A stretch of DNA of 32,000 nucleotides from Lachnospiraceae bacterium. Lineage in GTDB: Bacteria; Bacillota; Clostridia; Lachnospirales; Lachnospiraceae. The position numbers and the translations under genes were made by a program. Shown one piece after another: positions 1,184 through 27,767 of this stretch. How positions within the stretch are numbered: the first letter of the stretch is position 1; every line of letters begins with the position of its first letter. The notes under the pieces were generated by a model that was not told the DNA's origin, searched no databases, and worked only from the letters and a program-made list of their open reading frames with translations. Location: assembly GCA_015057505.1 (NCBI GenBank), contig SVEG01000002.1:147910-179909 (forward strand), written 5' to 3'.

Positions 1184-3448
1184 CTATAGTTTTTTTAGCT
1201 TTGCAAATGACGCAAATAATTTCTTCACGCCAGCGGTATCGAAATTCACGGTTACCTCGTAATCCCTGCCGCCTTCTACAATAGCTGTTACCATTCCGAC
1301 ACCGAACTTGACGTGGCTTACTGTATCGCCGACCTCATAATCAAGTGCAGCGGCTTTTGTAACAGTAAACTGCTTGGTTTCGTAGGGCTTTCTGTAAAAT
1401 GCATTACGAGCCTCGTTACCGATTGGTGCTGTGGATTCTCCCACAGAACCCGATAATATAAATTTGTCAGTATAACCCCTGTTCTCGGCAGATGCCTGTG
1501 GTCGCTTAGTAATCTTCTCCTCTGCATCTGTAAGATGCGCCGGAACCTCACGAAGGAAACGTGACATCATGTTAAATCTTGTCTCGCCCCTAAGTATTCT
1601 CTGCTTAGCATATGACAGTGTCAAATGCTCTTGTGCACGCGTAATTCCCACATAGCAAAGTCTTCTCTCTTCCTCAATTTCCGCTGTCGCATCTTCTGCA
1701 TTTATTGACATGGAGCTGGGAAACAGCCCTTCTTCAAGACCGCACAGATATACGCAAGGGAATTCAAGTCCTTTGGCACTGTGAAGTGTCATAAGAGTAA
1801 CTCTGTTCTCGGAATCTTCCAGACTATCTATATCAGCAATTAACGATACTTCTTCAAGGAACCCGAACAATGTCGGTTCCTCTGCAGTCTCCTCGTATTC
1901 TTTTATCTTGGTTATCAATTCGTCGATATTCTCGATACGTGCCTCTGCCTCATCACTCATATCAGCCTGAAGCTCGATAAGATATCCTGACTCTTCAACA
2001 ATCGCTTTTGCAAGCTCAGTAAGCGACAAGCTCGCTTTCCTCGCTTTGATTCCCTCTATAAGCTCCACAAAAGGCTTAAGCTTCGCTGCCGCCTTCTTTA
2101 ACGTATCAATCTGTTCTGCCTCTCTAAGCGCCTCATAAAAACTGATATCATGTCGGACCGCATAATCCTGCACTCGTTCTATCGTCGTAGCACCAATGCC
2201 ACGTTTGGGCACATTGATAATACGCCTTACCGCCAAATCATCCCTGCCGCCGTCAACCGTCTTAAGGTATGCGAGAATATCCTTGATTTCTTTACGCTGA
2301 TAGAAGTTAACACCACCGACAAGCTTGTACGGCAGATTCGCCCTTACACACTGCTCCTCTATCGTACGTGACTGTGCATTGGTTCTGTAAAGCACCGCAA
2401 AATCACTGTACGGTCTGAGTTCCTCTCGCACATATTTTTTAATATCGTTAACGATTCGCTCTGCTTCCTCGTATCCATTATTACATGTAAAAATCGCCAG
2501 CTTGTCGCCGTCTTCCTTCTCCGTCCAAAGCGTCTTATCCTTTCTGCCGGAATTATTACGGATAACGCCGTTGGCAGCATTAAGAATATTGGCGGTTGAA
2601 CGGTAATTCTGCTCAAGTCTTATTACCTTTGCGCCCGGATAAGCCTTCTCGAAGTCAAGAATATTGCGGATGTTAGCGCCTCTGAATTTGTAAATTGACT
2701 GGTCATCGTCACCTACCACGCAGAGGTTCTTATATTTTCTGGCAAGGAGCTCAATAAGCTTAAACTGCACTGTATTCGTATCCTGGTACTCGTCAACCAT
2801 TATGTACTTAAAACGATCCTGATAATAGTCAAGCACATCCTCATTATGCAAAAACAAATCCACAGTCTTACAAATCAAATCGTCAAAATCCATGGCATTG
2901 TTTTTCTTAAGTTGCTTCTGATATTCCCTGTAAACCTCCGCAACTTTACGCTTGATAAAATCACCGCCGGCATTTATCTCAAACTCATCCGGCATAATCA
3001 TCTCATCCTTAGCTTTGGAAATCATACCGAGAATAGCTTTCTCACTTAAATGCTTGGTATCAATCTCCATACGCTTACAGATATCCTTCATAAGTGACTT
3101 CTGATCGTCCGTATCATAAATCGTAAAGTTTGTATCAAAACCGAGTCTGTCCGCATATCTTCTTAAAATCCTTACACAGCTTGAATGGAACGTACTTACC
3201 CAGATACTCTCCGCGCCAAAGCTAACAAGTCTGTCAACACGGTCGCGCATCTCGCCTGCAGCCTTATTGGTAAAAGTAATCGCCATGATGTTCCACGGAT
3301 TTACACCCATTTCTTCAATCAAATACGTGATTCTATATGTTAAAACTCGGGTTTTCCCCGAGCCTGCCCCTGCCAGTATCAGAAGCGGCCCTTCTGTATG
3401 AAGGACCGCAGCTTTTTGCATGGCATTCAATTGTTCATAAATGCTCAT
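1184..3448 (-). CDS. pcrA: ATP-dependent DNA helicase PcrA (UvrD/Rep superfamily 1A)
   Basis: Walker A AGAGSGKTRVLT, motif II VDEYQDTN, and TFHS, QNYRS and TLMTLHSAKGLEF motifs. The C-terminal Tudor-like tail (GDTVSHVKFGVGMV) is typical of PcrA. 754 aa. AGGAAG RBS 8 nt upstream. Confidence 0.95.
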   Translation of the reverse strand: MSIYEQLNAMQKAAVLHTEGPLLILAGAGSGKTRVLTYRITYLIEEMGVNPWNIMAITFTNKAAGEMRDRVDRLVSFGAESIWVSTFHSSCVRILRRYADRLGFDTNFTIYDTDDQKSLMKDICKRMEIDTKHLSEKAILGMISKAKDEMIMPDEFEINAGGDFIKRKVAEVYREYQKQLKKNNAMDFDDLICKTVDLFLHNEDVLDYYQDRFKYIMVDEYQDTNTVQFKLIELLARKYKNLCVVGDDDQSIYKFRGANIRNILDFEKAYPGAKVIRLEQNYRSTANILNAANGVIRNNSGRKDKTLWTEKEDGDKLAIFTCNNGYEEAERIVNDIKKYVREELRPYSDFAVLYRTNAQSRTIEEQCVRANLPYKLVGGVNFYQRKEIKDILAYLKTVDGGRDDLAVRRIINVPKRGIGATTIERVQDYAVRHDISFYEALREAEQIDTLKKAAAKLKPFVELIEGIKARKASLSLTELAKAIVEESGYLIELQADMSDEAEARIENIDELITKIKEYEETAEEPTLFGFLEEVSLIADIDSLEDSENRVTLMTLHSAKGLEFPCVYLCGLEEGLFPSSMSINAEDATAEIEEERRLCYVGITRAQEHLTLSYAKQRILRGETRFNMMSRFLREVPAHLTDAEEKITKRPQASAENRGYTDKFILSGSVGESTAPIGNEARNAFYRKPYETKQFTVTKAAALDYEVGDTVSHVKFGVGMVTAIVEGGRDYEVTVNFDTAGVKKLFASFAKLKKL

Positions 3449-3466: not shown

Positions 3467-4444
3467 TTAAACTAATTTGTTACCGCAGTTCGGGCAGAAA
3501 TTAGCCCCTGTAGTCTTGGTTCCGCAATTCGGACAGAAATTAGGCATTGTGCCTGTTGTTCCCTGCTGCGCTACGCCTGCATTCTGGTTGCCTGACATCT
3601 GATTAACCATCTGCTGACCCATCATCATACCCATCTGCATACCTGCCATATTCTGCGCCATGTTGCCCATGGAGGAATTGCCACCCTGAGCTGTCATGGA
3701 ATCAATCATGGAAACATTCTGATAAAGGTTCATATCACCCACCATACTGTGTGAAGCAACCTTCTTAATCATAGCCTGAATCTCTGCCGGATAGCTTGCG
3801 TTCTGGATTGTAAAATCAGTAATTGTAATACCAATCTTGGTCATCTCCATATCAAGGTCTTCTCTGATACCCTTGGCAATCTCGTCAGAGTTAGCCATGA
3901 TATTGGCAAGGTCCTTACCTTCCTTAACAATCCACTTCATAAGGAGCTGGTCAACCTTGGCCATAACTCTCTCTTTAACATCATCTACTGTAAATGTGCT
4001 CTTAATTCCTGCAATCTTATCAATAAGTGTCTGATGATCACCAATCTTACAACTGAATGTACCAAAAGCTCTTAAAGGAAGTCCTCCCGGAAGATTAAGC
4101 TGCGGTGCCGGAATGTTAATCTCATTCTTGGTTCCCCACTTAATCGTAACTTCCTTAGTATTAACAAAGAGAACCTCTGCTCTCATACCGCTGTTAAAAC
4201 CGAATTTAAAACCCTTAAGTGTTGAAAGGAAAGGAATAATATCTGACTCAATATCAAAATTACCTTCCTCACGGAACACACCTTCAACCTTGCCGTTATA
4301 CATAAAAATTGCATCCTGTCCGGCACGGATAATAAGGCGGCTACCCTTCTTAATCTCGTCGTTATTCCACTTCCAGAATAATATGTCGTCGCGGTATTCT
4401 TCCCACTCTACCACATTTGAAAACTGATTACTGAAAAATCCCAT
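3467..4444 (-). CDS. ydjI: SPFH-domain protein of the B. subtilis YdjI type, with a Met/Gln/Gly-rich linker and a C-terminal double zinc ribbon
   Basis: The N-terminus NVVEWEEYRDDILFWKWNNDEIKKGSRLIIRAGQDAIF and the segment LSTLKGFKFGFNSGMRAEVLFVNTKE match my recollection of YdjI. The C-terminus is FCPNCGTKTTGANFCPNCGNKL. GGAGG RBS 9 nt upstream. Confidence 0.8.
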   Translation of the reverse strand: MGFFSNQFSNVVEWEEYRDDILFWKWNNDEIKKGSRLIIRAGQDAIFMYNGKVEGVFREEGNFDIESDIIPFLSTLKGFKFGFNSGMRAEVLFVNTKEVTIKWGTKNEINIPAPQLNLPGGLPLRAFGTFSCKIGDHQTLIDKIAGIKSTFTVDDVKERVMAKVDQLLMKWIVKEGKDLANIMANSDEIAKGIREDLDMEMTKIGITITDFTIQNASYPAEIQAMIKKVASHSMVGDMNLYQNVSMIDSMTAQGGNSSMGNMAQNMAGMQMGMMMGQQMVNQMSGNQNAGVAQQGTTGTMPNFCPNCGTKTTGANFCPNCGNKLV

Positions 4445-6604: not shown

Positions 6605-8923
6605 ATGACTGATTTTTTTGTTGAACCTAATCTTGTATCAAAAACTAAAGGAAGCTTTATTTATTTGAGCAATCAACCCGTGACGGAACTATCTTTGCTG
6701 ATGTCCGGTAAGGTAACCGTAGTCCGTGGTAATACGTCATTCGAAGCAAAGCCCGGAGAAATCATCGGTCTGTATGACATTATGGCTGACAAATACGATT
6801 ATACCTACATTGCTGCCGAAAACTGCATTTTAATGACATTATCCGGCACAAACATCGGCGCGCTTGAGAAGGACCTTACTATGTATCCCAATATACGTGG
6901 TGCACTTGTATCTTCCATGGGTAAGCTCGCAGTGTATCTTTCCACACAGTATAATAAATATATGCGCCAGACAGAATCTCTGTGCACGTTTCTCAACACC
7001 AAGTTCGAAAGCTATAAAGCACTGTGCAATGATAATTTGATATCCCTTCCTGAACTTTCAGATATGTCAGAAGATTTCTCTCTACTGTCGAATGACTTAG
7101 AGTCAGATTCTTCTGATTACATAAATTATTATAACGAACTGCTTAAAATGGAATCATCAATCTGCAACACTTTCTATGAAGCAAGTGAATACATTGCTCT
7201 TACCCATTTTAAAGAGGCTTTTGAACTTTGTGAAGACTATTCCCAACATCTTAAGGATGTTCTTGCAAGGCTAAAGAAGGCCGGCATGCATATTATCGGT
7301 ACTGACAGTAACTGCCTTTTCGGAATGTATTGCGAGCTTCAGTCTGAGCTTCTAAAATCCGGACGTAATACTGCTCTTACTTATCGAAATATTACGGAGA
7401 TGTTTTCACATGCTCAGCTTATCGGCATCAACAAGACTTTACTTGCCAATGCCTCTGCCTTGGTTAACGAGATTTCTAAAAATACTGCTGATGCGCTTGC
7501 AAAAGGCGACTCCTCACAAAAGGAAATATCCACAGATGATTTGGAGAAAATCAAACAAACTGCCACAGGAATGCTTGATAAGCTTCTTGCCTACTCCAAT
7601 CTACCCTCAGACGCACTCATTCCCTTTAAAGATGCTGTCCTTGCGTTTCGCAATCTCAAAGACAAGAGTGATACGAGTGAAACTACTACCACCATTCGCA
7701 AGACAATTGCAAAACATTTTTATCCTATATATGAAGCAATCTTTTTTAAATATGTGGAAACCGGTGCCAGAAATAAGCTCGTGGAGTTGTTTCTTAACAC
7801 CTGCCTTATTGACGAAAATCTTGTATCGGAGAGCCAATTGCAGGAGCTCTTCACAATGAATATTGATTCTGTCAAGGATATTAACGGTTTTCAGATATAT
7901 ACAATGTACGAATGGCTACTTGAGATATTTAGGGGCAATCAGGAACCTTCACGTAACGAATTTGATCAGGACTATGCGGCGACAATTCGTGATCGTAAAC
8001 GAACTGAGAAGCTTACGGACACACAGGTAACCACAATGATGATGGACAAAAAAGCGAAGACCAAATTTGAAATTCAGAATTTCTTCCGTTCCTCACACAG
8101 AATTACCTGCGGTCAGATTCTTGGATTTTGTCCTATTTTGTACAGTGACTATCATGATGAGCAGTTCTCTTCTCTTTTTGTTTCAAAGAAAAGAGTAACC
8201 GATACTTTTGCAAAATACAGAGCGCTTGATTTTTCAATTTTTTATAGAACTGTCCCCTACGAAATCAACCGATTCGGTCTTGAGAAGGAAATCCTTCAAA
8301 AAGAAGTTCTTCCTTGTATTATCCTTAATCCGATAATCGGCCAAAAAGGTATTATGTGGCAGGAGCTTGCCGGTGCAAAAAAAGATACACCCGCCCGCTT
8401 CTCCTTCCCTATCTTATTCAGGGGTGACTTTAACACTTGTGTTCTCCGCTCCTTCGGTCAATTCCGTTGGGAATTATGCAAGAACATTGAAGGTCCGCAC
8501 TGGAGCGACATACGCCAGAAATCCCTTACTTCGGAGTACTTTGATTACATCTCTTACTACAAGAAGAACCATGAGATTTCAACTGAAGCCAAGGAGAAAA
8601 TCAAGACAGTACTCACTAAATATCACAATAATTTTAAAGAAGTATTTACCAACGATTACTTAGCATACATGACCTACGAATCCGGCGGAGCATCACGCCT
8701 TAACAAGGTTGCACGTGCAATACTCTTCCGCTACTGCCCGTTTAGTATAGAAACACGTAAGTCACTGCTTTCCAGTCCGGTATATACCGACTTAATCGCT
8801 TATCACGATAAAAACTGTGCTGCAAAGCTTCGCCGAATCGGCGGTGTTCTTGCCACCATCACCAATAACGGCGGCGACATCACACCTGAACTTGAAGTTA
8901 ATCGTAACTTCTACACATTATAA
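6605..8923 (+). CDS. Large cytoplasmic protein of unknown function, 772 aa, with an N-terminal cNMP-binding/cupin-like beta-barrel segment
   Basis: The long ORF starts 54 nt after the SBP gene, with a GAGGT RBS. The N-terminal ~110 aa (KVTVVRGNTSFEAKPGEIIGLYDI...AAENCILMTL) resemble a Crp/cNMP-binding barrel. The rest is helical with no TM segment and no motif I recognise. Confidence 0.6.
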   Translation: MTDFFVEPNLVSKTKGSFIYLSNQPVTELSLLMSGKVTVVRGNTSFEAKPGEIIGLYDIMADKYDYTYIAAENCILMTLSGTNIGALEKDLTMYPNIRGALVSSMGKLAVYLSTQYNKYMRQTESLCTFLNTKFESYKALCNDNLISLPELSDMSEDFSLLSNDLESDSSDYINYYNELLKMESSICNTFYEASEYIALTHFKEAFELCEDYSQHLKDVLARLKKAGMHIIGTDSNCLFGMYCELQSELLKSGRNTALTYRNITEMFSHAQLIGINKTLLANASALVNEISKNTADALAKGDSSQKEISTDDLEKIKQTATGMLDKLLAYSNLPSDALIPFKDAVLAFRNLKDKSDTSETTTTIRKTIAKHFYPIYEAIFFKYVETGARNKLVELFLNTCLIDENLVSESQLQELFTMNIDSVKDINGFQIYTMYEWLLEIFRGNQEPSRNEFDQDYAATIRDRKRTEKLTDTQVTTMMMDKKAKTKFEIQNFFRSSHRITCGQILGFCPILYSDYHDEQFSSLFVSKKRVTDTFAKYRALDFSIFYRTVPYEINRFGLEKEILQKEVLPCIILNPIIGQKGIMWQELAGAKKDTPARFSFPILFRGDFNTCVLRSFGQFRWELCKNIEGPHWSDIRQKSLTSEYFDYISYYKKNHEISTEAKEKIKTVLTKYHNNFKEVFTNDYLAYMTYESGGASRLNKVARAILFRYCPFSIETRKSLLSSPVYTDLIAYHDKNCAAKLRRIGGVLATITNNGGDITPELEVNRNFYTL

Positions 8924-8945
8924 TCAAAATCAACAGAAACTATGC

Positions 8946-8974
8946 TTGACACTTTTAGCTATTTTGATTATAAT
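8946..8974 (+). promoter_or_regulatory. Sigma-A type promoter for the T-box leader
   Basis: TTGACA (8946-8951), a 17-nt spacer, then TATAAT (8969-8974). Both hexamers match consensus perfectly. Confidence 0.8.
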
Positions 8975-8996
8975 ATTGAAAATGCTAATAAATAAA

Positions 8997-9267
8997 GACA
9001 ATGAAGAGAAGAGTATTCTTGTTGCGCATCCACAGAGAGTTCCCGTAAGCTGAGAGGGAATGGTTCGGGCAGGAAGAAACAAGCCTCGGAGTCGCATACG
9101 GATCTTATTTTTATAAGTGATGCTATGACGCATGGTTCACGTTACGAATCGGAGTGTGTAATGCACTTACTGAGGTTCATACAGTGATGTATGAATGCAC
9201 CGGGTGGCACCGCGATATATGTTTATATTCGCCCCTGTGGAAATCTCCACAGGGGTATTTTTATTTT
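8997..9267 (+). promoter_or_regulatory. T-box riboswitch leader (tRNA-sensing transcription attenuator)
   Basis: Stem I spans 8997-9093. It has K-turn halves GAC-A-AUGA and GGA-GUC, an AGUA box (GAGTA, 9011-9015), an AG bulge AGAGAG (9034-9039) and a distal loop GTAAGCTGAGA (9045-9055). An F-box-like CGTTA lies at ~9140. The T-box sequence is AATGCACCGGGTGGCACCGCG (9194-9214). The antiterminator (GGG-UGGCACC-GCG...CGC-CCC) competes with the terminator at 9232-9267. Confidence 0.9.
9232..9267 (+). terminator. T-box leader intrinsic terminator
   Basis: CCCCTGTGG (9232-9240), loop AAATCT, CCACAGGGG (9247-9255), then TATTTTTATTTT. Confidence 0.9.
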
Positions 9268-9283
9268 CAAAGGAGAGACTCAC

Positions 9284-11278
9284 ATGATTAACAGACGAAT
9301 CAGACCGGACGAGCGTCCGATTTTCCCCAAAAGAGCCGTTGTTACGGCAGGTATGCCCTACGGCAACAAAACACTTCACTTCGGCCATGTAGGCGGAATG
9401 TTCCTTCACGCTGACACATTTGCACGTTTCCTTCGTGACAGAATAGGCAAGGAAAATGTTATCTTCGTTTCAGGTACGGACTGCTATGGTTCACCTATCG
9501 TAGAAGCTTACCGCAAGCTCGTTGAACAAGGATTTGACGGAACTATTGAAGATTATGTAATGGGCAATCACGAAAAGCAGAAACAGACTCTTGAGGATTA
9601 CGAAATCGGCCTTAACCTTTACGGTGCATCCGCTTTCGGCGATACAGGTAAAATGCATACAGAAGTTTCTGACTTTGTTTTTGAACGTTTATATGAGAAC
9701 GGCTGGCTTGAAAAGCTTTCCACACCACAGTTTTTTGACCCTGACAAAGAAGTGTTCTTAAACGGTCGTCAGGTTGTAGGAAAATGCCCCATCGAGGGTT
9801 GTTGCTCTGAAAAAGCTTACGCTGACGAATGTGCACTCGGTCATCAGTACATGCCTACTGATTTGATTGACCCGATCAGTACTCTTTCCGGCAAAAAGCC
9901 TTTAATCAAGAATGTTACCAACTGGTATTTTAAGTTAGAAGAATGCACGGAGCTTATGACAGAATACATCCAGTCACTTCGTGCAAACACCAACACACGT
10001 AAATATCAGTTAAATACAATAGAGGAATTTTTAAAACCTCCGTACATCTATGTACAGAGAAAGAACATCGAAGATCTTGCCGCGCTCGAAGCAGAGTTTC
10101 CTGAGCATGAGACAATTGATGAAGAAAAGAAGCCTTCCATTACTTTTGTTTTTCGCAATCTTGACGGACGTGACAAGGCCCGTGCAGTGCTTGACGCCAA
10201 GTCCATCCGCTACAGAACAGGTAAGACTCTCGTTCCTTTCCGTCTTTCAGGTAATATCAAATGGGGCGTTCCCGTTCCCGACAAGGAAGACATGAAGGAT
10301 ATGACATTCTGGGTATGGCCCGAGTCATTGTGGGCACCGATTTCCTTCTCCCGTACTTTCCTCGCAAAACAGGGTACAGACGAGAACGAATGGAAAAAAT
10401 GGTGGGATGACGATGATGCTTGTGTTTACCAGTTCATCGGTGAAGACAATATTTACTTCTACGGTATCGCAGAGATGGCTATGGCCGTTGCTCTTAAAAA
10501 CAAATACTACGATACACCGGATTTGAGCAAGGTTCATTTTCCTCACTTAATCGCAAATAACCACGTTTTATTCATGGATAAAAAAGCAAGCAGCAGCTCA
10601 GAGATTAAGCCTCCGATGGCAGACGAGCTTTTGGAATTCTACACAGCAGAGCAGCTCAGAATGCATTTCTTAAGCCTCGGTCTTTCAACCAAGAGCGTTG
10701 GTTTCAAGCCGCAGGTTTACATGCCTGAAAATGAGCGTCAAGGTCAGGATACGGTACTTAAGGAAGGTAACCTTCTTACGAACGTATTTAACCGACTTAT
10801 CCGCTCCTGCTTCTACTCAATCCAGTCATATTATGACTGCAAGATACCGGAAGGAACTGTTGATGAGAAGATTCTCACACTTGCAAAAGATGCAGTACTT
10901 GAATATGAGCATCACATGTACAACCATGATTTCCATAGAATCACTTATGTACTTGACAGCTTTATCCGCGAAATCAACAAGCACTGGGTAAATAACATTA
11001 AGGTTGCAGAAAAAGAAGAAAACGACGCACTTCGTCGCCAGATTTTAGTAGATTGCTTCTACGGAATCAAGGTAATTTCTACTCTCCTTCATCCTATCGC
11101 ACCTGTAGGTTGTGAAATGGTTAGAGAGTACCTCAATGTAGATGAACGTCTCTGGAGCTGGGATTATATCCTTGAGCCGCTTGCAGCACTTATGAGCGAC
11201 AATCATGAATTCAAGTTCCTTGAGCCGAAGGTTGATTTCTTTAAGAAATTAGATTGCCAGTTTGGTGCTAATGAATAA
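9284..11278 (+). CDS. Class I aminoacyl-tRNA ligase of the methionyl-tRNA synthetase family, 664 aa. Divergent: the KMSKS loop reads KASSS, and there is no C-terminal tRNA-binding domain.
   Basis: HIGH motif as MPYGNKTLHFGH, GTDCYG (vs GTDEHG) and a zinc-knuckle region GKCPIEGCCSEKAYADEC. The block YMPTDLIDPISTLSGKKP...NWYFKL is collinear with E. coli MetG as I recall it. Start moved to the ATG at 9284 (AAGGAGAG RBS) because the ORF-track start at 9191 lies inside the T-box leader. Confidence 0.8.
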   Translation: MINRRIRPDERPIFPKRAVVTAGMPYGNKTLHFGHVGGMFLHADTFARFLRDRIGKENVIFVSGTDCYGSPIVEAYRKLVEQGFDGTIEDYVMGNHEKQKQTLEDYEIGLNLYGASAFGDTGKMHTEVSDFVFERLYENGWLEKLSTPQFFDPDKEVFLNGRQVVGKCPIEGCCSEKAYADECALGHQYMPTDLIDPISTLSGKKPLIKNVTNWYFKLEECTELMTEYIQSLRANTNTRKYQLNTIEEFLKPPYIYVQRKNIEDLAALEAEFPEHETIDEEKKPSITFVFRNLDGRDKARAVLDAKSIRYRTGKTLVPFRLSGNIKWGVPVPDKEDMKDMTFWVWPESLWAPISFSRTFLAKQGTDENEWKKWWDDDDACVYQFIGEDNIYFYGIAEMAMAVALKNKYYDTPDLSKVHFPHLIANNHVLFMDKKASSSSEIKPPMADELLEFYTAEQLRMHFLSLGLSTKSVGFKPQVYMPENERQGQDTVLKEGNLLTNVFNRLIRSCFYSIQSYYDCKIPEGTVDEKILTLAKDAVLEYEHHMYNHDFHRITYVLDSFIREINKHWVNNIKVAEKEENDALRRQILVDCFYGIKVISTLLHPIAPVGCEMVREYLNVDERLWSWDYILEPLAALMSDNHEFKFLEPKVDFFKKLDCQFGANE

Positions 11279-15233: not shown

Positions 15234-15397
15234 TATTTTTTGATTTGATATTTTGCATATAATACCTAGTTTGTGAAATACTAATTTTATAATTTACCCA
15301 CAATTTCATTACTATTTTAAGGGAATATTTGCCTTAACTATTGACTTTTCCCTTATTTTATATTACTATTCAAGGGAAAGAGAGGTGTCATAAGGGA

Positions 15398-16444
15398 ATG
15401 AGACCATTTAACTATTCAGATTTAAAAGAACAAAAGTGGGATTCTGATATCCTCAGGCTTATCGCTGCTATCTATAAAGAAGCCGGAAAACAGGAAATGT
15501 ATTTGAAACAAAGACCTGAAGAATCAGAAAAGCTTGTAGAAATAGCAAAAATTCAAAGTACCGAAGCTTCCAATGCCATTGAAGGTATTGTTACTACCAG
15601 TACCCGAATCAGGCAGCTTGTGGAAGAAAAGACTACACCGAAAAACCGTGATGAACAGGAAATTGCCGGCTACCGTGATGTACTTAACATCATCCATGAG
15701 AATTTCGATGCAATTCCTTTGTCGCAAAATTATATCTTGCAATTTCACAAGATTATGTACAGCCATATGAATAACCCGATGGCAGGACGTACTAAAAATA
15801 CACAAAACTACATCACAGCCAAATATTCGGACGGACATGTGGAAACCATTTTTACACCACTTGCTCCTTACGAAACACCGGAAGCACTAAACAGAATCTG
15901 CGAAGAATATAATCGTGTCATCGGAAACATGGAAGTAGAACCGCTCATTGCCATTCCTATCTTTATTCATGATTTTCTCTGCATACACCCATTCAATGAT
16001 GGCAACGGCAGAATGAGCAGGCTACTTACTACACTGCTCTTATATCGAAATGGTTTTTACGTAGGGAAATATATATCGTTGGAAGCAAAGATTGCTAAGA
16101 ATAAAGATCTTTACTATGATGCTCTTAACCGCTCACAAGACAAATGGCACGAAGGATGCGAAGATGCACTTCCCTTCGTTAAATATTTTCTTGGAATTGT
16201 ACTTGCTGCATATAAGGATTTTGAAGACAGATTTGCCATTGTAGAAAAAAAGCTCCCTGCCATAGAAATGGTACGCAAAGCTACATTAAATAAGATAGGC
16301 AGATTTACCAAGCAGGATATCCGAGAATTATGTCCTTCTTTAAGCATCAGCTCCATTGAAGGCTCACTTCGTAAAATGGTGGCAGCCGGAGAACTGAAAC
16401 GTGAGGGGTCCGGAAAATCCACTTACTATTTTCGACTAAAATAA
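15398..16444 (+). CDS. Fic-family protein (AMPylase-type) with an N-terminal inhibitory helix motif and a C-terminal winged-helix-like tail
   Basis: Fic motif HPFNDGNGRMSR. Inhibitory motif SNAIEG, matching (S/T)xxxE(G/N). I preferred the ATG at 15398 (GAGAGGTG upstream) over the TTG at 15341. Confidence 0.9.
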   Translation: MRPFNYSDLKEQKWDSDILRLIAAIYKEAGKQEMYLKQRPEESEKLVEIAKIQSTEASNAIEGIVTTSTRIRQLVEEKTTPKNRDEQEIAGYRDVLNIIHENFDAIPLSQNYILQFHKIMYSHMNNPMAGRTKNTQNYITAKYSDGHVETIFTPLAPYETPEALNRICEEYNRVIGNMEVEPLIAIPIFIHDFLCIHPFNDGNGRMSRLLTTLLLYRNGFYVGKYISLEAKIAKNKDLYYDALNRSQDKWHEGCEDALPFVKYFLGIVLAAYKDFEDRFAIVEKKLPAIEMVRKATLNKIGRFTKQDIRELCPSLSISSIEGSLRKMVAAGELKREGSGKSTYYFRLK

Positions 16445-16622: not shown

Positions 16623-17183
16623 ATGGAGGACGCAAAAATAGTCCAGTTATACTGGAGCAGAGATGAGCAGGCAATTTCTGCCACGGCAGACAAATATGGC
16701 AACTACTGTACCTTTATTGCCGGAAACATACTTGGAAACAACGAGGATGCAGAAGAATGTGTCAACGATACATATCTTCACGCATGGAACTCCATGCCAC
16801 CACATAGGCCAAATATTCTGTCTACATTTCTTGGAAAAATCACAAGGAACTTATCAATAAACAGATACAAGCATAACACTGCAGACAAACGAGGTGGCGG
16901 TGAGCTGCCTATGGTTTTGGATGAAATCTCGGAACTTGTATCTGATATGGATGACGTTGAAAACGAGATAGAATATAAGGAGCTTATAGATGCCATTGAT
17001 ACATTTCTTGGTACATTATCTGTCAAAATGAGAGGTATCTTCGTTAGACGATACTGGTACTTTGACAACATTTCATATATTGCTTCGCGCTTTGGCATGA
17101 CAGAAAATAATATATCTGTCACGCTTAACCACATACGCCTAAAATTACACAACTACCTTTTAGAGAGGGGATTTGAACTATGA
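16623..17183 (+). CDS. Sigma-70 family (ECF-like, group 4) RNA polymerase sigma factor
   Basis: Region 2 DAEECVNDTYLHAWNSMP. Region 4 HTH ISYIASRFGMTENNISVTLNHIRLKL. GAGGTG RBS. Confidence 0.85.
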   Translation: MEDAKIVQLYWSRDEQAISATADKYGNYCTFIAGNILGNNEDAEECVNDTYLHAWNSMPPHRPNILSTFLGKITRNLSINRYKHNTADKRGGGELPMVLDEISELVSDMDDVENEIEYKELIDAIDTFLGTLSVKMRGIFVRRYWYFDNISYIASRFGMTENNISVTLNHIRLKLHNYLLERGFEL

Positions 17184-18340
17184 AAAAAGAAAAATTTGTT
17201 GAACTTCTCGGCAACATCAATGAAAACTATATAAAAGAAGCCGAGACAATTGAAACCACCAAAAAGCCCGTTTGGCTAAAATGGGGTGCCATAGCAGCCT
17301 GCCTTGCAATTATTGTATATGCCGGCGTAAGGCTTTTTCCAAAAGGCGCGGAAACACCAAGGGTTTTACCTGATTTACCCTTGATTACTATTGAAAATAA
17401 CGGAGTCTCAGGAATGGGTTTTGAAGGATATCTTGCTCATGATATATCAGAGCTTGTAAGTGCCAATCCTTGGAATAAGTCATTAAAAATTGACGCACTG
17501 CCTGTCTATCGCAATGCCTTAACCTACGATAAAAATCATCTTGAATCTTCACCGGATGCTGATCCTGATAAAATGCAGGAGCTTTTACTGGAAGTTGCAG
17601 ACAGCCTTGGACTTGACACAAATAATGTGACCATTGAGCAGGAATTTCTTGTTGAAAACGCTCCGCCTACTTACTTGAGAATTAATACAGAGGAATTTAG
17701 AATTGAAGTTGACCAATCGTTAGTCGCAACAATACACTTTAAAACGAACATTCCCCTTCCTGAAGAATATAATTATTACTATGCGCCCTATGATGATATA
17801 GCCGCCGTTGCCGAATACCTGAAAAAACAATACAGTAATTTTATAATCCTTAACAATCCGCAAGCTAATATTCATGGCGGAGATTACGACATTCGAGGAC
17901 GGCAAATATATGACCTTAAGTTTTTTGAAGGAAGCGAAAACAAAATCGAGCAGATTATAAATTACAACTTTAACAAAGTGGAATTTGGTTGCGTTAATGA
18001 CGAGTTATTTCTGATAAGAATATATAAACCTGATTTGTCTGAGAAAGTTGGCGACTATCCGATTATCACTCCCGATGAAGCATATGAGCTGTTAGCAGAC
18101 GGACAATATGCATCCTCTTCTCCCTACGAGCTTCCTGGATTAAAATATGTCAAAAAGGTGGAGCTTGTCTATCGTACCGGCAAATACGAAAGCTACTATA
18201 TGCCATACTATCGCTTTTATGTTGAATTACCCGAGGAACAACACGAACATGGATTAACAACCTATGGAGCGTATTATGTGCCCGCGGTAGTAGGCTCGTA
18301 TATTACCAACATGCCGACATATGATGGCAGATTTAACTAA
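17180..18340 (+). CDS. Putative single-pass membrane anti-sigma factor or sigma-associated protein, 386 aa
   Basis: 4-nt ATGA overlap with the sigma gene. The N-terminus LLGNINENYIKEAE is typical of partners of clostridial ECF-like sigmas. One TM segment (WLKWGAIAACLAIIVYAGV) and a large extracytoplasmic domain. Confidence 0.6.
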   Translation: MKKEKFVELLGNINENYIKEAETIETTKKPVWLKWGAIAACLAIIVYAGVRLFPKGAETPRVLPDLPLITIENNGVSGMGFEGYLAHDISELVSANPWNKSLKIDALPVYRNALTYDKNHLESSPDADPDKMQELLLEVADSLGLDTNNVTIEQEFLVENAPPTYLRINTEEFRIEVDQSLVATIHFKTNIPLPEEYNYYYAPYDDIAAVAEYLKKQYSNFIILNNPQANIHGGDYDIRGRQIYDLKFFEGSENKIEQIINYNFNKVEFGCVNDELFLIRIYKPDLSEKVGDYPIITPDEAYELLADGQYASSSPYELPGLKYVKKVELVYRTGKYESYYMPYYRFYVELPEEQHEHGLTTYGAYYVPAVVGSYITNMPTYDGRFN

Positions 18341-20196: not shown

Positions 20197-22236
20197 TTAC
20201 TTCTTAATCTCCATATAAGCATGCTTCTCCGGACTCTTCTCATAAACAGCAGGCACAACCTTCTCACCCTCTGTATTAACCGTATAAATCTCCGGCACCG
20301 GAACCTTTGTTGTCTCCGCTCCAAAATAGAAACTTGTATTGGCAGGCTGGTTATAATGATTATTCTGCCATACAATTGCCTCTCTGTAAGTCACATCATG
20401 CATAAGTGTCGGCATTCTGTACTCTGTTGGGATATTAGTGCTGTAAATACGCATCTCAGTATTGTCAGCGGCACGAACAATAACCTCATCTCGCCAGTCA
20501 CCGAGAAAATCCGCTGTAAGACAGTTTTGCCCCTTACTTCCGCCGTTAGAAGCACTGCCGCTTGCAGTAAGAACCGTATTCATAACTTTTTCTTCCCAGT
20601 CCCATTTATAAATCGTTATCTCACTCTTAGCATCATGGTCAAGAAGTTCTGCAAGCAAATCTCCATCCCAGTACATCTTCATATTCATGGATGAAGGACA
20701 AGCCTCGTTAAGCACCTCACCGGAAAAAGCCATAAGTGGTGTACCCGTGGAACCCCACATCTCCCAACCTCTGCTTGTCGGATCAATATCTGCGGCACGT
20801 GAACGTCCCGTATCCTTAGGCTTTGTCTCACCAAAAATAATCTCACCAGTGAGTGCACTATGTAAGCCGATGTTTACCGGAAGATTCGCAGTCTCCCTGC
20901 ACGCCCACGTAAAATACTCATATGTATCCGGACTCATAACAGCCACATCATACGCATCACCGTGTCCAAGCTTAATCTCTGTTCCATCCTCTTTTACACC
21001 CTTAACAATATACATTATACTTCCATCATCATCTATCGCTGCTGCACCTGTGATAATCTCATCCTTGCCGTCATAGTCCACATCAGCAACCGCTATACTG
21101 TGATAGCCTGTGTTAAACAAATTCTCCAAAGAATTCTTATTCTCGCAGTCAACTGTCCAGCCAACTTCAAACTCACCATCTTTTATATTCCATGTTGCAA
21201 CCTTACAAGCTGCCCAACAACCACGGAAATGCACAATACTTGGTGTCTCTCCGTTAAGATATGCCACACAAAATCCATAATGGCTAGCTCTTTTTGTTGT
21301 TTTACCTGTATCATAAGAATTAAGCCATGATTCAAGTGGGTCTCTTGACGGTAAAAGTTCAGTTCTTGCTACTTCTTCTCCTGTCTCACCGTCATACATT
21401 GATAAAAATTCAGGACCTTGGCTCAGATACTGTCTATCTTTCATTATTACAAGTGCACTTCCACGCTTACTGTAATCAGTTACACCGTCGCCATCCATGT
21501 CTCCAATCTTATTACCTACACCATCAACCGTCCCTTCAAACGAACGCATTACCACCTCTGATTTACCATCGCCATCCAAATCATAAACAATAAAATTAAT
21601 ATCTATTGTATTAATCTCATTCGGACCTATATCAATGGTCCACATGTGTGTTCCGTCAAGCTCATACGCCTCTAAAAGCGGATACACATCCCTACTGACC
21701 ACATTCATATTTGCCGGATTACGACGCACAACTATCTCATACTGTCCGTCACCATCCAAATCACCTACGGACGCATCATCTATATTATAATCTCCAATTT
21801 CATACTGTTTAACCGGAACCGACAGATACTCTCTGCTAAAATTAATGGCTGTCTCTGTCTTATCAGTCTGCTCCGCCTTCTTTACAACAGGAACAAGTGT
21901 GTACACAGCATTAGCATCTTTAGTAGCATCATAAGAAGTATCCGTATAATTGGTTAAGCTCTCAATAGGCTTCTTGTTAAGAAGCGTACCGTCCTTGTAC
22001 ACGTTAAACTTAAGCTCTGTTGAATCGGTTCCCAAAAAACGCCAGCTTAAAAACATACCTTCCTCCGAAGGTATCGCCACAAATCCTCTGTCAAGCTCCT
22101 CCATCTGCTTAAGAGACACCGGACGATTCTCATACATTAAGTCCATCTCCGTCTTCGGTTTTTCTTCCTTACAGCCCATAGCACATACAAGCATTGTTGT
22201 AGCAAGTGTCAAACAGCATAAACGTCGTAATTTCAT
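20197..22236 (-). CDS. Polysaccharide lyase family 11 rhamnogalacturonan lyase-like beta-propeller lipoprotein (YesW/YesX-like)
   Basis: KQMEELDRGFVAIPSEEGMFLSWRFLGT, DDASVGDLDGDGQYEIV, YWDGDLLAELLD, and LTADFLGDWRDEVIVR...MRIYSTNIPTEYRMPTLMHD..YREAIVWQNNHYNQP are collinear with B. subtilis YesW as I recall it. Lipobox AMGC. ATG at 22236 with a GGAGG RBS. Confidence 0.8.
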   Translation of the reverse strand: MKLRRLCCLTLATTMLVCAMGCKEEKPKTEMDLMYENRPVSLKQMEELDRGFVAIPSEEGMFLSWRFLGTDSTELKFNVYKDGTLLNKKPIESLTNYTDTSYDATKDANAVYTLVPVVKKAEQTDKTETAINFSREYLSVPVKQYEIGDYNIDDASVGDLDGDGQYEIVVRRNPANMNVVSRDVYPLLEAYELDGTHMWTIDIGPNEINTIDINFIVYDLDGDGKSEVVMRSFEGTVDGVGNKIGDMDGDGVTDYSKRGSALVIMKDRQYLSQGPEFLSMYDGETGEEVARTELLPSRDPLESWLNSYDTGKTTKRASHYGFCVAYLNGETPSIVHFRGCWAACKVATWNIKDGEFEVGWTVDCENKNSLENLFNTGYHSIAVADVDYDGKDEIITGAAAIDDDGSIMYIVKGVKEDGTEIKLGHGDAYDVAVMSPDTYEYFTWACRETANLPVNIGLHSALTGEIIFGETKPKDTGRSRAADIDPTSRGWEMWGSTGTPLMAFSGEVLNEACPSSMNMKMYWDGDLLAELLDHDAKSEITIYKWDWEEKVMNTVLTASGSASNGGSKGQNCLTADFLGDWRDEVIVRAADNTEMRIYSTNIPTEYRMPTLMHDVTYREAIVWQNNHYNQPANTSFYFGAETTKVPVPEIYTVNTEGEKVVPAVYEKSPEKHAYMEIKK

Positions 22237-22250
22237 AAAAGCCTCCAAAA

Positions 22251-25055
22251 TTATTTTTTCATTCGGTTGAGAAGCTGGGAGGTATCAAGTCTCTCCTGTG
22301 TGGGTTCTTTCTTCGCCGCCTTCTTCTCTTTCTTATCAGTTTTTTCCGAAGAACTCTTCTTACTCTTTGCAAAACCTGTCTCCGCCTTATCGGCAGTAAT
22401 CATATCCACTGCCGGAGCAGTTTTCTTAGAATTCTTACCTGACTTGGCCGCACTCTCTGCCTTCTTCTCTGCTCTCGCCTGAGCCCATGCCTTAAGCTTT
22501 GCTATCGGCAGATACTCAAGCAGATTGATGCGGAAACGTCTGATTGCTATGTCCGCGATAAAAAGTATCGCCGCCAGAACAAGTAGAAACGTTCCAAGCT
22601 CTGTTCTCTGTTTAACCATATCAAGTTCTTCATCAAAAACTTCATTTGCGACGGTAATCATATTACCGCCGACCGCTTTTGTATATTCCTCCAGAACTGT
22701 GGTTTCCTCATAAAAACGATACTCAAGCGAATACTGCATCATCGTTGCAGTATTAATGCTTCCGATAGTCTCGCCGTTCTCCTTCTGCTGAAGATTGATG
22801 CTGTAAACTCCCGTACCCTCCATCTCAAAGTCCGTCGTATATACGCCGGGCGTTACAGGGTCAAGCGTTACAACCTTGGACTGACCGTTATCATCGTAAA
22901 TTGTAGCCTGAACGCTAGTTGATGCGTTAAAATCTTCCGTCACAAATTTTATCGTGGCAGTCTTGCCGTTTTGCTCAACCTCGGCATACGCACCGTCCAT
23001 TCCCATGTCTGTAGTTATATACTGTATAAGATTATACCACAATCTTGATGTTTTGTCCCATCCTGCCCAGTTGGCAGACCAATTATTTTTTACATCGGAG
23101 GTCCATGCAACAGTTTTACCAAGTCCGTACTGCCAACAGCACAAAAGCGGATCACCTTCAGAGGACTGCAAAAGCTGCGTGGCCCTTGCTTTTCTCGTCG
23201 TCGCCACATATCCAAAAAGTGACGGCAGACCGTTTTCTGCCACAGAGCTTATCATTTCGTCATTAGATGTTACAATCGGTACAAAATTACCGTCCACAAG
23301 ATAAGAGTTAACCGACAAAAATACCTCCTGCGCAAAAATACGCGGGATATCCGAATCTATATCCGTATAATAAAAACGTCCGCCGCATTCCTCGGCAAGC
23401 ATGTTAAGAAGTGTCTGGTTACATCCCTGTCCTACCGCTACCGTTGAAAGTGTAATCTGACCGTTATTAATTCTGTTAATAACCTTGGGATAATTATTAT
23501 ATGTGTCCTGTCCGTCGGTAAGCAAAATAATATGCTTTACCTTGGCAGGATTTTTCTCAAGTGAAACTGTTGCCGCTTCAAGTGCCGGATATATCGAAGT
23601 TCCGCCACCAAGCTCTATTGAATATATTGCATCCTCGATTGCCCCACGGTCAGATGCCTTTTGAAGCTTAACTATCTCCTGATAACCGTCATCAAATGCC
23701 ACTACACCTATATAATCCGTATCTCTTAAGTTATCAAGTGCCGCTGCCGCCGCCTGCTTTGCAAGGTCGAGATTCGTTATTACACCATTGCCGTCCGACA
23801 TACTTCCCGACTTATCAATTACCATCATAATCGCCATCGTCGGAATCTCGTTTTCGCCCTGAAGGTCCATATCTACGGGAAGCACTGTTTCAAGTGCCGT
23901 ATCCTTATAATTACCGAGTGCATAACTGTTGTTACCTCCCGTAGTTATAAAGCCTCCGCCGTAATCCTTTACATAGGCCTCAATATTCTCCATAAAGCCT
24001 TCTCGCAAATCATCGGCATATACATTTACAAAAACAATTCCAGCGTACTGGTTCATCTCTGAAAGGCTTCCCGGAGCCGTCACCGGCTGTACAACCTGAT
24101 AGCGCACCTGAATACTGTCCAGCACCTTTACAAATTCCGAAGACTCTCCTGCCGTTCCTTCTACAATAAGAATCGGCTTACGTGTAGAAATATTGGTATA
24201 CGCGAGATACTCATTATTGGCAGTTATTGTATCTTCCTCTGCATCCACCTGTACACGATATGTCTTTAAGCCTTCCTCCGACTGAGTATCCTTAAATACA
24301 AAAGTATTAACGCCCTTTTGCAGATTTACCTTCTGCTGTCCTTTAAGGGTTCTTCCTGAATACAAGCTGACTGTTGCCGGACTTGCCACGTTACTTTCAA
24401 TCTTAACCGTAATTGTAAAGTTCTCACCTGTTCCGACACTGTCAGGAACGGAAATATCGCTTACACACACTTCGGCACTGCTTCCCGTCTCCATTTTTAC
24501 TACCTCGACAAGACATTTGGAAGTTGCAACCGAAGAAATCGTATTTTTAAGATTGCCTTCATTCTCAACACCGTCCGTCAAAAGCACGATACGTTTTGCC
24601 GAATCCTCCGGCATCATCGCAAGTGCCATCGTAACCGCACCTTCAAGATTGGTCGCGGTCTTCGTGACATCAGTCTGAAATTCTGAAAAGGTTATCTCTT
24701 CAGACACAAACTGCTCTACCTTTGCATCGCTTCCGAACGCCACAACACCGATGCTGTCATCGCCCGATTTTTCCTTAATTGCATCATTTACAAAGTGAAG
24801 CAGTTCGTCTCCGTTTTCCTTCATGCTGTCCGATATATCAAGCAGGAAAACTGTAGATACTGCACTGCCTTTCCACTTCATGCTTACACCGCTGAGCGCC
24901 AAAATAAGAAGCATAGCAATAAGTGCACGCACACTAATCTGCAAAACTCTGTGTGCCTTGTTTTTAACAAACATATATTTTGCAGAGAATATTAACAAAC
25001 CGATAACTATCGGTATTCCTATCAAAACTAAAGGTCTGGAAAATTCTATGTTCAT
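22251..25055 (-). CDS. Large membrane-anchored protein with two von Willebrand factor A domains, a GATase1-like middle domain and a Lys-rich C-terminal tail (BatB-like), 934 aa
   Basis: N-terminal TM pair like the BatA N-terminal domain. MIDAS motifs VFLLDISDSM and MMVIDKSGSM. The middle segment ILIVEGTAGES...GGGFITTGG resembles the DUF1355/class-I amidotransferase-like fold. A C-terminal TM is followed by a KKxxKK-rich tail. Confidence 0.75.
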   Translation of the reverse strand: MNIEFSRPLVLIGIPIVIGLLIFSAKYMFVKNKAHRVLQISVRALIAMLLILALSGVSMKWKGSAVSTVFLLDISDSMKENGDELLHFVNDAIKEKSGDDSIGVVAFGSDAKVEQFVSEEITFSEFQTDVTKTATNLEGAVTMALAMMPEDSAKRIVLLTDGVENEGNLKNTISSVATSKCLVEVVKMETGSSAEVCVSDISVPDSVGTGENFTITVKIESNVASPATVSLYSGRTLKGQQKVNLQKGVNTFVFKDTQSEEGLKTYRVQVDAEEDTITANNEYLAYTNISTRKPILIVEGTAGESSEFVKVLDSIQVRYQVVQPVTAPGSLSEMNQYAGIVFVNVYADDLREGFMENIEAYVKDYGGGFITTGGNNSYALGNYKDTALETVLPVDMDLQGENEIPTMAIMMVIDKSGSMSDGNGVITNLDLAKQAAAAALDNLRDTDYIGVVAFDDGYQEIVKLQKASDRGAIEDAIYSIELGGGTSIYPALEAATVSLEKNPAKVKHIILLTDGQDTYNNYPKVINRINNGQITLSTVAVGQGCNQTLLNMLAEECGGRFYYTDIDSDIPRIFAQEVFLSVNSYLVDGNFVPIVTSNDEMISSVAENGLPSLFGYVATTRKARATQLLQSSEGDPLLCCWQYGLGKTVAWTSDVKNNWSANWAGWDKTSRLWYNLIQYITTDMGMDGAYAEVEQNGKTATIKFVTEDFNASTSVQATIYDDNGQSKVVTLDPVTPGVYTTDFEMEGTGVYSINLQQKENGETIGSINTATMMQYSLEYRFYEETTVLEEYTKAVGGNMITVANEVFDEELDMVKQRTELGTFLLVLAAILFIADIAIRRFRINLLEYLPIAKLKAWAQARAEKKAESAAKSGKNSKKTAPAVDMITADKAETGFAKSKKSSSEKTDKKEKKAAKKEPTQERLDTSQLLNRMKK

Positions 25056-25074
25056 ACCCTTCTCTTTTCCGGCA

Positions 25075-26886: not shown

Positions 26887-26900
26887 GGTTTTCTCCTATC

Positions 26901-27767
26901 CTATGCCAATCTTGAAAGTGTTCCGAAGAATATACTGTCGAGGCTTTCATCCGACATTACGCGAAGATAAGACGCCGCATATTTTCTCGAAACCGTATCA
27001 ATATGATTTATGAAATCATTGTAGTTACTCTTGTATTCCTTATCAAGCGCACTGCTCATAGTTATCCGCATACCGGCATTTGTCTCGCTGTCGAGAAGAT
27101 TAAGAGTTCCTTCAAGTCCCGGATTTACCTCCTCGGGCGAAAGCACCTGTATTAGAATAACCTCCTGCTTACTGAAGGTCAGGTATTTTAAAATGTCTTC
27201 AAGATTTTCGGTATAAAAATCTGAAATAACTATCGAAACGCCGCGCTGCTTGATATTGCTTCTTTTGATGCATGAAAGCAAATCTGCCTCACCATCAAAA
27301 TTAATCTGTTCGAGTCTCTCTATCGTCTTCGCAAAGGCCTGACGTCCCGTCACTCCCTTATGTACGGTAAGTCCGTTCCCCTGCATTATATTAAGAATAA
27401 GACGATCCGAGTTCTCAAGCACACAATATGAAAGTGCCGCGGCAATTCTCTGTGCGCATACTGATTTGGCCTTTTCACCGAAATCCATGGACTTGCTTCC
27501 GTCCACGAATATCCTGAAAACGCCTTCTTTTTCCTCCATAAAAAGCTTTACAAAAAGCCTGTCAAATCTGCCATAAGCATTCCAGTCAATTCTTCTGATA
27601 TCGTCACCGAGTATGTACTCGCGAAAATCCGAAAACTCTACGGAATTACCCTTGGCATTGGACTTCCTTCCGCCATTCATACCTGCGGCAAGACGCATCT
27701 TCATGGACATTCTGAAGGTATTTAATTTGTGATAAAACTCAGCATTAAAAATCTTTTCGTCTGCCAT
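26901..27767 (-). CDS. DUF58-family protein (MoxR-associated)
   Basis: Signature FREYILGDDIRRIDWNAYGRFDRLFVKLFMEEKE. 288 aa. AGGAG RBS. Confidence 0.85.
   Translation of the reverse strand: MADEKIFNAEFYHKLNTFRMSMKMRLAAGMNGGRKSNAKGNSVEFSDFREYILGDDIRRIDWNAYGRFDRLFVKLFMEEKEGVFRIFVDGSKSMDFGEKAKSVCAQRIAAALSYCVLENSDRLILNIMQGNGLTVHKGVTGRQAFAKTIERLEQINFDGEADLLSCIKRSNIKQRGVSIVISDFYTENLEDILKYLTFSKQEVILIQVLSPEEVNPGLEGTLNLLDSETNAGMRITMSSALDKEYKSNYNDFINHIDTVSRKYAASYLRVMSDESLDSIFFGTLSRLA

Follow-up and report, generated by a model that had tools for sequence, protein, structure and literature searches.

A MetRS-fold ligase gene under glutamine-specific T-box control in Clostridia, a candidate synthetase for tRNA-Gln

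The gene and its T-box leader

The stretch of DNA analysed here, hereafter called the window, covers 32,000 nucleotides (nt) of contig SVEG01000002.1 from a Lachnospiraceae bacterium (assembly GCA_015057505.1, forward strand, positions 147,910 to 179,909). It contains a gene for a 664-amino-acid protein with the fold of methionyl-tRNA synthetase (MetRS), preceded by a T-box leader in which the specifier is a glutamine codon. The protein belongs to a family that we call group A, and we consider below whether it may be a synthetase for tRNA-Gln. The gene and its control elements are located as follows:

8946..8974, + strand: sigma-70-type promoter, TTGACA and TATAAT with a 17-nt spacer, 12/12 match to the consensus
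8992..9239, + strand: T-box leader (RF00230), matching the full-length model (positions 1-219/219) with 87.1 bits and E=2e-19
9076..9084, + strand: 3' side of the Stem I specifier loop, GAA-A-CAA-G-C, with the CAA (Gln) codon at 9080-9082 in the codon slot of the Rfam consensus
9202..9214, + strand: T-box sequence GGGUGGCACCGCG, with the antiterminator bulge UGGC at 9205-9208 that pairs with a tRNA 3' end G73-CCA
9231..9266, + strand: intrinsic leader terminator, an 11-bp hairpin, 7 pairs of which are GC, and a T-run
9269..9277, + strand: ribosome-binding site AAAGGAGAG, preceding the ATG at 9284
9284..11278, + strand: coding sequence of the group A class Ia synthetase paralogue with MetRS fold, 664 amino acids (open reading frame list, Pfam, NCBIfam, AlphaFold2 model, Foldseek)

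The open reading frame (ORF) at 9284-11278 is the only long one at its position, and since a longer frame from 9191 would cross the leader terminator, 9284 is taken as the correct start. The promoter ends 18 nt 5' of the T-box match. The leader contains a Stem I with a kink-turn, an S-turn specifier loop of the AGUA/GAA type, a distal AGAGA, a T-box sequence with a UGGN bulge and an overlapping terminator. Its score is 6 bits short of the gathering score that Rfam sets at 93, and it therefore escapes default annotation: an Rfam scan at this threshold reported nothing in the window. Together, the predicted promoter, glutamine-specific T-box, terminator/antiterminator, ribosome-binding site and ORF show that the gene is a stand-alone transcription unit. 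A preliminary description of this DNA had mentioned a T-box that did not look like one for methionine, and the CAA specifier agrees with this. From the window alone, however, the 3' side of the specifier loop, GAAACAAG, would also fit AAC (Asn) or ACA (Thr).

Glutamine codons in the leaders of orthologous genes

To the window we added 65 related loci (53-96% identity), identified by a scan of one genome per species and located in Lachnospiraceae, Anaerocolumna, Herbinix, Inconstantimicrobium, Clostridium subterminale, C. simiarum, Halanaerobiales, Oscillospiraceae and Caldicoprobacterales. Carriers of the group A gene include Anaerocolumna sp. AGMB13025 (NZ_CP121445), Anaeromicropila herbilytica TB5 (NZ_AP024169), Herbinix hemicellulosilytica, Clostridium subterminale JCM 1417, Inconstantimicrobium spp. 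and Lachnospiraceae KM106-2 and XBB1006. A T-box is placed directly upstream of the gene in 31 of the 65 loci. All 32 leaders, including that of the window, contain the loop GAA-N-CA(A/G)-G, where N is A, G or C and the codon is CAA in 29 leaders and CAG in the other 3, and the glutamine codons are the only codons conserved among these leaders of the window subclade. Asparagine and threonine specifiers were rejected, as neither fits the orthologues that read GAAGCAAG, GAACCAAG or GAACCAGG, and lysine or arginine codons (AAG/AGG) were rejected as inconsistent among the leaders. In the 31 distinct leaders, pairing is 100% in both stems below the specifier loop and 77.5% in the stem above it, with compensatory changes throughout, and the structure exceeds all shuffles and all slid controls. 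A second subclade, which is 53-56% identical to the window protein and whose query is matched at E<=1e-50 by more than 5,400 clusters at 90% identity, was sampled via contigs encoding its members and yielded six T-boxes with a one-base-shorter loop, GAA-CAG. The specifier is thus a glutamine codon in 38/38 T-box leaders from two subclades, 29 with CAA and 9 with CAG. The same bias for CAA over CAG is seen among the 226 glutamine T-boxes in TBDB (215 vs 11). The orthologous leaders score 86.4-100.2 bits against RF00230.

The most conventional alternative is that the gene encodes a second, divergent MetRS, such as an inhibitor-resistant or stress isoform. Many database records indeed name the group A proteins methionine--tRNA ligase, and there is a precedent in the documented resistant MetRS paralogues (PMC5388404). 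However, every T-box specifies glutamine and none of them contains AUG. The tRNA end tells against a MetRS as well, in that tRNA-Met has A73 as its discriminator base, which would not pair with the UGGC bulge. Across the leaders this bulge reads UGGC or UGGU, and a tRNA-Gln(CUG) encoded at locus L049 ends in ...CCGGCA-G-CCA, in which the discriminator G pairs with the UGGC of the window. The gene for this tRNA (L049 4969-5042, - strand) is convergent with the Halanaerobiales orthologue and located some 240 nt downstream of it. Being convergent and a single case, this adjacency was treated as chance, and the tRNA served only to identify the discriminator base.

Two 80% identical relatives, L048 and L068, lack a T-box and instead contain a promoter with a 12/12 match, a leader ORF of 31 codons and a terminator. 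The encoded leader peptides are MQIMFKVQRNKDQQGLQNQQMQAFISYSLIS in L048 and MQNLHNIQLHKVQQCLQNQQKQALIRCSLIR in L068. All eight glutamine codons are conserved between them, but the internal methionine codons are not, which is again at odds with a MetRS. The hairpin with its T-run has a z-score of -4.5, and its 5' arm is complementary to the end of the leader ORF, UUCUCUUAUU. This is the predicted layout of a ribosome-mediated attenuator sensing Gln-tRNA-Gln. No convincing glutamine-rich leader peptide was found at the other loci without a T-box. We infer that two distinct cis-regulatory mechanisms couple expression of the gene to the level of tRNA-Gln charging.

In three lineages (L051, L071/L078 and L075/L076/L079), a gene of the GluRS type (gltX; PF00749 and Anticodon_2) is located 35-40 nt upstream on the same strand. 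No other recurrent neighbour was found among the 99 flanking genes scanned, and no T-box was found upstream of the operons led by gltX. In L078 (15983-22028), a metagenome contig, the rpsL-rpsG-fusA-S10 ribosomal protein operons follow about 4 kb downstream of the pair of gltX and the MetRS-like gene. The pairing with gltX would also suit an enzyme that charges tRNA-Gln with glutamate, like GluRS2 of Helicobacter, after which the Glu-tRNA-Gln is amidated by GatCAB. The logic of the T-boxes and leader peptides fits such an enzyme equally well, and most Firmicutes have no GlnRS and use the amidotransferase route (Wels et al. 2008). We return to this alternative with the substrate pocket.

Several further observations concern the leaders. 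In the closest relatives of the window gene, L001 and L047 (85-87% protein identity), the region corresponding to 8924-9283 is a promoter spacer of about 80 nt, while the window and L002 have a 340-nt T-box leader. The upstream neighbour is the same in L001, L002, L047 and the window, where it is a 772-amino-acid protein (6605-8923, + strand) with a weak N-terminal cyclic-nucleotide-binding match and otherwise no Pfam domain. The short spacer next to the same neighbour indicates a very recent loss or gain of the leader in a single Lachnospiraceae lineage. In the isolate C. simiarum MSJ-4 (L060, ~3819-3822), the gene is frameshifted at residue ~282 and the T-box leader is intact, and in its close relative C. 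subterminale (L061) the gene is intact. In Anaerocolumna-like genomes, an A-rich sequence of 300-450 nt is placed between the T-box terminator and the start codon (L023 ~2600-3000, also L052); it contains several tandem copies of a ~40-nt unit (…GAAATTAATTAGAAGGACAAAATGA(C/T)AATCT…), and a long spacer is present in L019 as well. Locus L072 contains a cyclic di-AMP (c-di-AMP) riboswitch (2291-2425, - strand, 74.9 bits) upstream of an NlpC/P60 cell-wall hydrolase, a known association, in divergent orientation to the T-box-controlled gene.

The protein family, its insertion and its substrate pocket

The protein matches the MetRS catalytic domain in Pfam (tRNA-synt_1g, PF09334) with E=1e-63, the match being split in two by a gap, and it matches Anticodon_1 (PF08264) weakly. 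The Pfam scan showed no C-terminal tRNA_bind domain, and the Pfam/NCBIfam scan gave no match to the GlnRS/GluRS catalytic domain (PF00749) or to the anticodon-binding beta-barrels of GlnRS (PF03950). The nearest solved relative is the MetRS of P. abyssi (1rqg; E=3e-45), and this alignment is also broken, between query residues 251 and 322. The placement against hidden Markov models that had been proposed for this protein was carried out, and it missed all curated metG cut-offs: 236.4 bits vs 587 for NF001100, 190.8 bits vs 336.35 for TIGR00398, and at most 70 bits for the remaining NCBIfam metG models. An AlphaFold2 model from an alignment of 50 sequences is confident (mean predicted local distance difference test, pLDDT, 90.9; predicted template modelling score 0.90), and its top Foldseek matches are all MetRS structures (TM scores of 0.79-0.88 relative to the target). 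The fold and best sequence matches are what a divergent MetRS would give, but the scores far below the two curated models are not. As read from these matches and the features listed here, the product shows a complete class Ia architecture of MetRS descent, with a HIGH Rossmann fold, a zinc knuckle, a KMSKS-type loop and a helical anticodon-binding domain. The features were located in alignments of 53 full-length orthologues with E. coli MetRS and in a separate profile-profile alignment (hhalign); the E. coli reference sequence used is consistent with fragments in the PDB search output.

9353..9388, + strand: MPYGNKTLHFGH, with the invariant HIGH motif HFGH (residues 32-35), methionine at the position of L13 and the group-A-specific Lys29 (orthologue alignments)
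9785..9844, + strand: single zinc knuckle CPIEGC...EC..GH, with invariant ligands C168, C173, C183 and H187, aligned to E. coli C145/C148/C158/C161
10037..10246, + strand: family-specific insertion, residues ~252-321, between the connective peptide domain and the second half of the Rossmann fold (split of the PDB and Pfam alignments)
10310..10348, + strand: WVWPESLWAPISF, in which W253 is retained and followed by a PES insertion, and Y260 is replaced by Phe (alignments)
10433..10477, + strand: FIGEDNIYFYGIAEM (residues 384-398), with the replacements H301 to Tyr, F304 to Ala, W305 to Glu and P306 to Met
10577..10621, + strand: KMSKS-equivalent loop D-K-K-A-S-S-S-S-E-I-K-P-P-M-A, with K434 and K442 invariant and Ser at position 437, that of the second lysine
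10751..11158, + strand: alpha-helical anticodon-binding domain, with helices at 490-617 in the model, in which the canonical P-W (Trp461) is lost

The preliminary description had regarded the protein as collinear with zinc-knuckle MetRS of the E. coli type, with an extra 60-70 residues ahead of the WGVP block and an end directly after the anticodon-binding helices. The alignments and Foldseek matches confirm the shared fold with one zinc knuckle, and the profile-profile alignment and the model place the C-terminus where it had been described. The insertion consists of about 70 residues and is present in all members of group A and of a sister group, group B, but not in canonical MetRS. It ends in an invariant GKTLVPFRLSGN in place of the canonical R-x-I-T-R-D, and it is modelled as a compact beta-alpha-beta-beta-alpha module with a pLDDT of about 90. 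In an Oscillospiraceae metagenome-assembled genome (L051, 3754-3756), the insertion module contains one in-frame TAG (…IYIKKD*LELWEQ…) with an intact and conserved frame on both sides. This codon may be a recoded stop or a sequencing error, or the gene may be a pseudogene.

The insertion has no assigned function, and this would suit a protein that acts outside ordinary aminoacylation, as an amino-acid ligase or tRNA-Gln-binding protein concerned with a non-standard amino acid, another acceptor or proofreading. MetRS-like domains with many amino-acid specificities have been recruited to secondary metabolism (PMC12376268, PMC8664883), and the frameshift in C. simiarum and the TAG in L051 suggest that the gene can be dispensable. 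Nevertheless, we consider a role of this kind unlikely. The Pfam scan found no cupin or other fused domain, the flanking genes form no conserved biosynthetic neighbourhood, the anticodon-binding domain is kept in full, control by T-boxes and attenuators usually marks genes whose products restore the charging of tRNA, and the gene in L078 is located near ribosomal protein operons.

A search of 1.84 billion representatives retrieved full-length relatives aligned in a single stretch down to 28% identity, followed by canonical MetRS at about 150 bits in two stretches. Group A, the type found in the window, has a KASSS loop and occurs in Clostridia, and group B occurs in Bdellovibrionota and Oligoflexia (Halobacteriovorax, Bacteriovorax, Oligoflexus). 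The phylogenetic placement, also proposed beforehand, was inferred by neighbour-joining with the insertion columns removed and separates the two groups from canonical MetRS as a long-branched monophyletic clade (100/100), with support of 100 for A as well as for B and a long branch leading to group A. Members of both groups fall below the curated MetRS cut-offs, group B being nearer to them, and there is no dedicated NCBIfam model for the family. Group B proteins are 28-32% identical to the window protein and share with group A the insertion, the WPESL-APISF motif, the L13M and H301Y replacements, Gln at position 305 and the replacement of Trp461 (P-H). Unlike group A, they contain a canonical KMSKS, GTDDHG, PYANG and a CxxC...CxxC knuckle. 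They lack a T-box, as expected of a Gram-negative host, and their neighbourhood in Halobacteriovorax is uninformative on function.

The residues needed for adenylate chemistry, namely HIGH, Asp52 and the first KMSKS lysine, are invariant across the orthologues, and on this basis the protein appears to be a functional ligase whose specificity has changed rather than a decayed one. The KMSKS loop had been called degenerate in the preliminary description. Its observation was correct in that residues 432-440 read DKKASSSSE, with the first lysine invariant and the second replaced by Ser (both 53/53), but this does not by itself amount to degeneracy, since many genuine MetRS enzymes read K-F-S-T-S. 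The aligned position in P. abyssi is KKFSTSRN, and K[FIL]STS is found in many canonical MetRS representatives. By itself the missing lysine would thus also be compatible with a MetRS. An inactive enzyme was rejected on these grounds and because group A contains the invariant lysines K29 and K442. Lys29, in PYGNK, occurs exactly where the second KMSKS lysine is missing, while group B and canonical MetRS have ANG there, and K29 and K442 may compensate catalytically for the lost lysine.

In structures of the E. coli enzyme, L13, Y260, H301 and W305 form part of the methionine pocket, and the first three are the positions that engineers mutate to retarget it. The L13M, Y260F and H301Y replacements are invariant across the orthologues. 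The Tyr at position 301 (53/53) and the Glu at position 305 (52/53; Gln in some deep members) are those seen in the first inspection of the window sequence. PDB entry 3h97, the title of which names a mutant MetRS with modified specificity, is among the sequence- and fold-search matches. The PES insertion after W253 gives the pocket-loop motif WPESLWAPISF, of which WPESL is common to groups A and B. Asparagine in place of I297 was rejected as a specificity change, as it is the norm in MetRS other than that of E. coli. In the anticodon-binding domain, Trp461, which stacks on the anticodon base C34 in MetRS, falls in a 2-residue gap in the hhalign alignment; in the MAFFT alignment, the site is P-W in canonical MetRS (invariant in 17 sequences), P-H in group B and K-x in group A. 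The alignments thus show that the residues for methionine and CAU-anticodon specificity are replaced. With L13, Y260, H301, W305 and W461 all lost, in addition to the specifiers and scores above, we consider a MetRS very unlikely.

The same pocket bears on glutamate. The MetRS-like domain PyrN binds a glutamyl-adenylate analogue, and the fold can evidently accommodate this amino acid. However, what was gained at the W305 position is the acidic Glu397 (Gln in some members), and the alignments revealed no additional basic residue that is invariant in the pocket. An acidic residue would be expected to suit an amide better than a carboxylate side chain, and charging with glutamate appears improbable to us.

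The remaining genes of the window include no other synthetase or tRNA gene. On the plus strand there is a Fic-domain protein (15341-16444), and a sigma-70 family (ECF-like) factor followed by a 386-amino-acid ORF without Pfam match, possibly an anti-sigma factor (16623-18340). On the minus strand there is a rhamnogalacturonan lyase of family 11 (20197-22248), consistent with a plant-fibre-degrading Lachnospiraceae host, and a BatA / VWA / DUF58 cluster of the aerotolerance (Bat) operon type (22251-27767, probably to ~28844), which includes a 934-amino-acid VWA protein with a GATase1-like region.

A candidate synthetase for tRNA-Gln and its relation to known systems

The preliminary description had suggested a paralogue with a changed amino-acid or tRNA specificity, and the regulatory and protein evidence both support a change: the glutamine specifiers of the T-boxes, the codons of the leader peptides and the pairing with gltX in three lineages on the one hand, and the replaced residues and missed MetRS cut-offs on the other. 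The reading that we favour, and to which we would give an even chance, is that the protein is a MetRS-derived synthetase serving tRNA-Gln, probably by direct charging with glutamine, and thus a GlnRS of MetRS ancestry that is unrelated to canonical GlnRS. The glutamine side chain is nearly isosteric with that of methionine, and Tyr393 and Glu397 could read an amide. The similar size and shape, these two residues and the acidic character of the pocket favour direct glutaminylation over a role like that of GluRS2. Our confidence falls slightly short of even for the broader proposal of a third natural route to Gln-tRNA-Gln, widespread in Clostridia, in which a class Ia GlnRS arose from MetRS by retargeting of both the amino-acid pocket and the anticodon-binding domain. 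The sister clade in predatory Bdellovibrionota may do the same as group A.

On the favoured reading, a shortage of Gln-tRNA-Gln would let the UUG anticodon of uncharged tRNA-Gln pair with the CAA specifier and its free G73-CCA end pair with the UGGC bulge. The antiterminator would then replace the hairpin at 9231-9256 and the enzyme would be made. It would most likely activate glutamine in a pocket to which Tyr393 and Glu397 lend polarity, transfer it to tRNA-Gln and thereby enlarge the charged pool.

Several observations weigh against a synthetase of this kind. About half of the orthologues, including relatives of the window protein at 70-87% identity, have no T-box or recognisable leader, and the leader-peptide attenuator is found in two related contigs only, where the glutamine codons are located inside a conserved hairpin and RNA structure may add to their conservation. 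The asparagine and arginine equivalent to the anticodon-binding N391 and R395 of MetRS are kept. The C. simiarum frameshift and the L051 TAG suggest that the gene can be dispensable, although apparent dispensability would fit an accessory or redundant route. Finally, group B shares the insertion and has Tyr at position 301 and Gln at position 305, and if its members are the sole MetRS of their hosts, the argument from the pocket would weaken.

Few exceptions to the rule of one synthetase family per amino acid are known, class I and class II LysRS being the classic case. Glutamine is regarded as a latecomer to the genetic code, for which cells use either a GlnRS of eukaryotic origin or the detour through GatCAB. 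If the favoured reading is true, group A would represent a new type of synthetase for a standard amino acid, an independent bacterial solution for tRNA-Gln derived from MetRS, and a natural case of a synthetase that changed both its amino-acid and its tRNA specificity. It would also provide a new orthogonal scaffold for genetic-code engineering. Full-text literature searches, in which subscription-only journals were not covered, yielded no account of a paralogue of MetRS with a link to tRNA-Gln, and group A, common in Clostridia, may represent a tRNA-Gln-charging enzyme that evolved independently and has gone undescribed. Thousands of family entries in databases carry the name "methionine--tRNA ligase" or "class I tRNA ligase family protein". 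Even if the substrate is glutamate or another compound, a large synthetase family that had escaped recognition has come to light through the specifiers in its cis-regulatory leaders.

Among known systems, the zinc-knuckle MetRS of E. coli and P. abyssi (MetRS2 type) share with the window protein the fold, the collinear domains with one zinc knuckle, HIGH, the Asp that binds the amino group of the substrate, W253 and the first KMSKS lysine, and the KFSTS loop of archaeal-type MetRS resembles its KASSS. The identity to canonical MetRS is 18-24%. Canonical MetRS lacks the 70-residue insertion and the PES pocket-loop insertion and has Trp461, and the window protein in turn lacks the C-terminal tRNA-binding/dimerisation domain and is controlled through tRNA-Gln rather than tRNA-Met. 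Canonical GlnRS (class Ib, derived from GluRS; PF00749/PF03950) is likewise a class I enzyme and makes the proposed product, Gln-tRNA-Gln, but there is no homology at the family level, as the window protein belongs to the MetRS branch of class Ia. In the indirect pathway of GluRS2 and GatCAB, a dedicated tRNA-Gln synthetase works beside a separate GluRS, which resembles the pairing with gltX in three lineages, although GluRS2 is a GluRS paralogue and the window protein a MetRS paralogue.

That the MetRS fold can be retargeted follows from the hydrazine synthetases (Spb40, PyrN and relatives), the MetRS-like domains of which take Glu, Gly, Ala, Tyr, Ser and Thr (PMC12376268). One of these domains (PDB 9l8v) appears at rank 32 of the Foldseek search, and the sequence similarity to the window protein is E~1e-5. 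The hydrazine synthetases are fused to a cupin, encoded in biosynthetic clusters with an N-hydroxylase, and acylate a hydroxylamine instead of a tRNA, while the window protein has no cupin and its neighbours are unrelated and variable. Class I and class II LysRS set the precedent of one amino acid served by synthetases of different descent, of which the window enzyme, if the proposal is true, would be a second case. It differs from the LysRS pair in that both enzymes would be of class I, in different subclasses. The class I lysK of B. cereus, which encodes an extra enzyme, is reported to be under T-box control (PMC2916919), as is the gene in the window.

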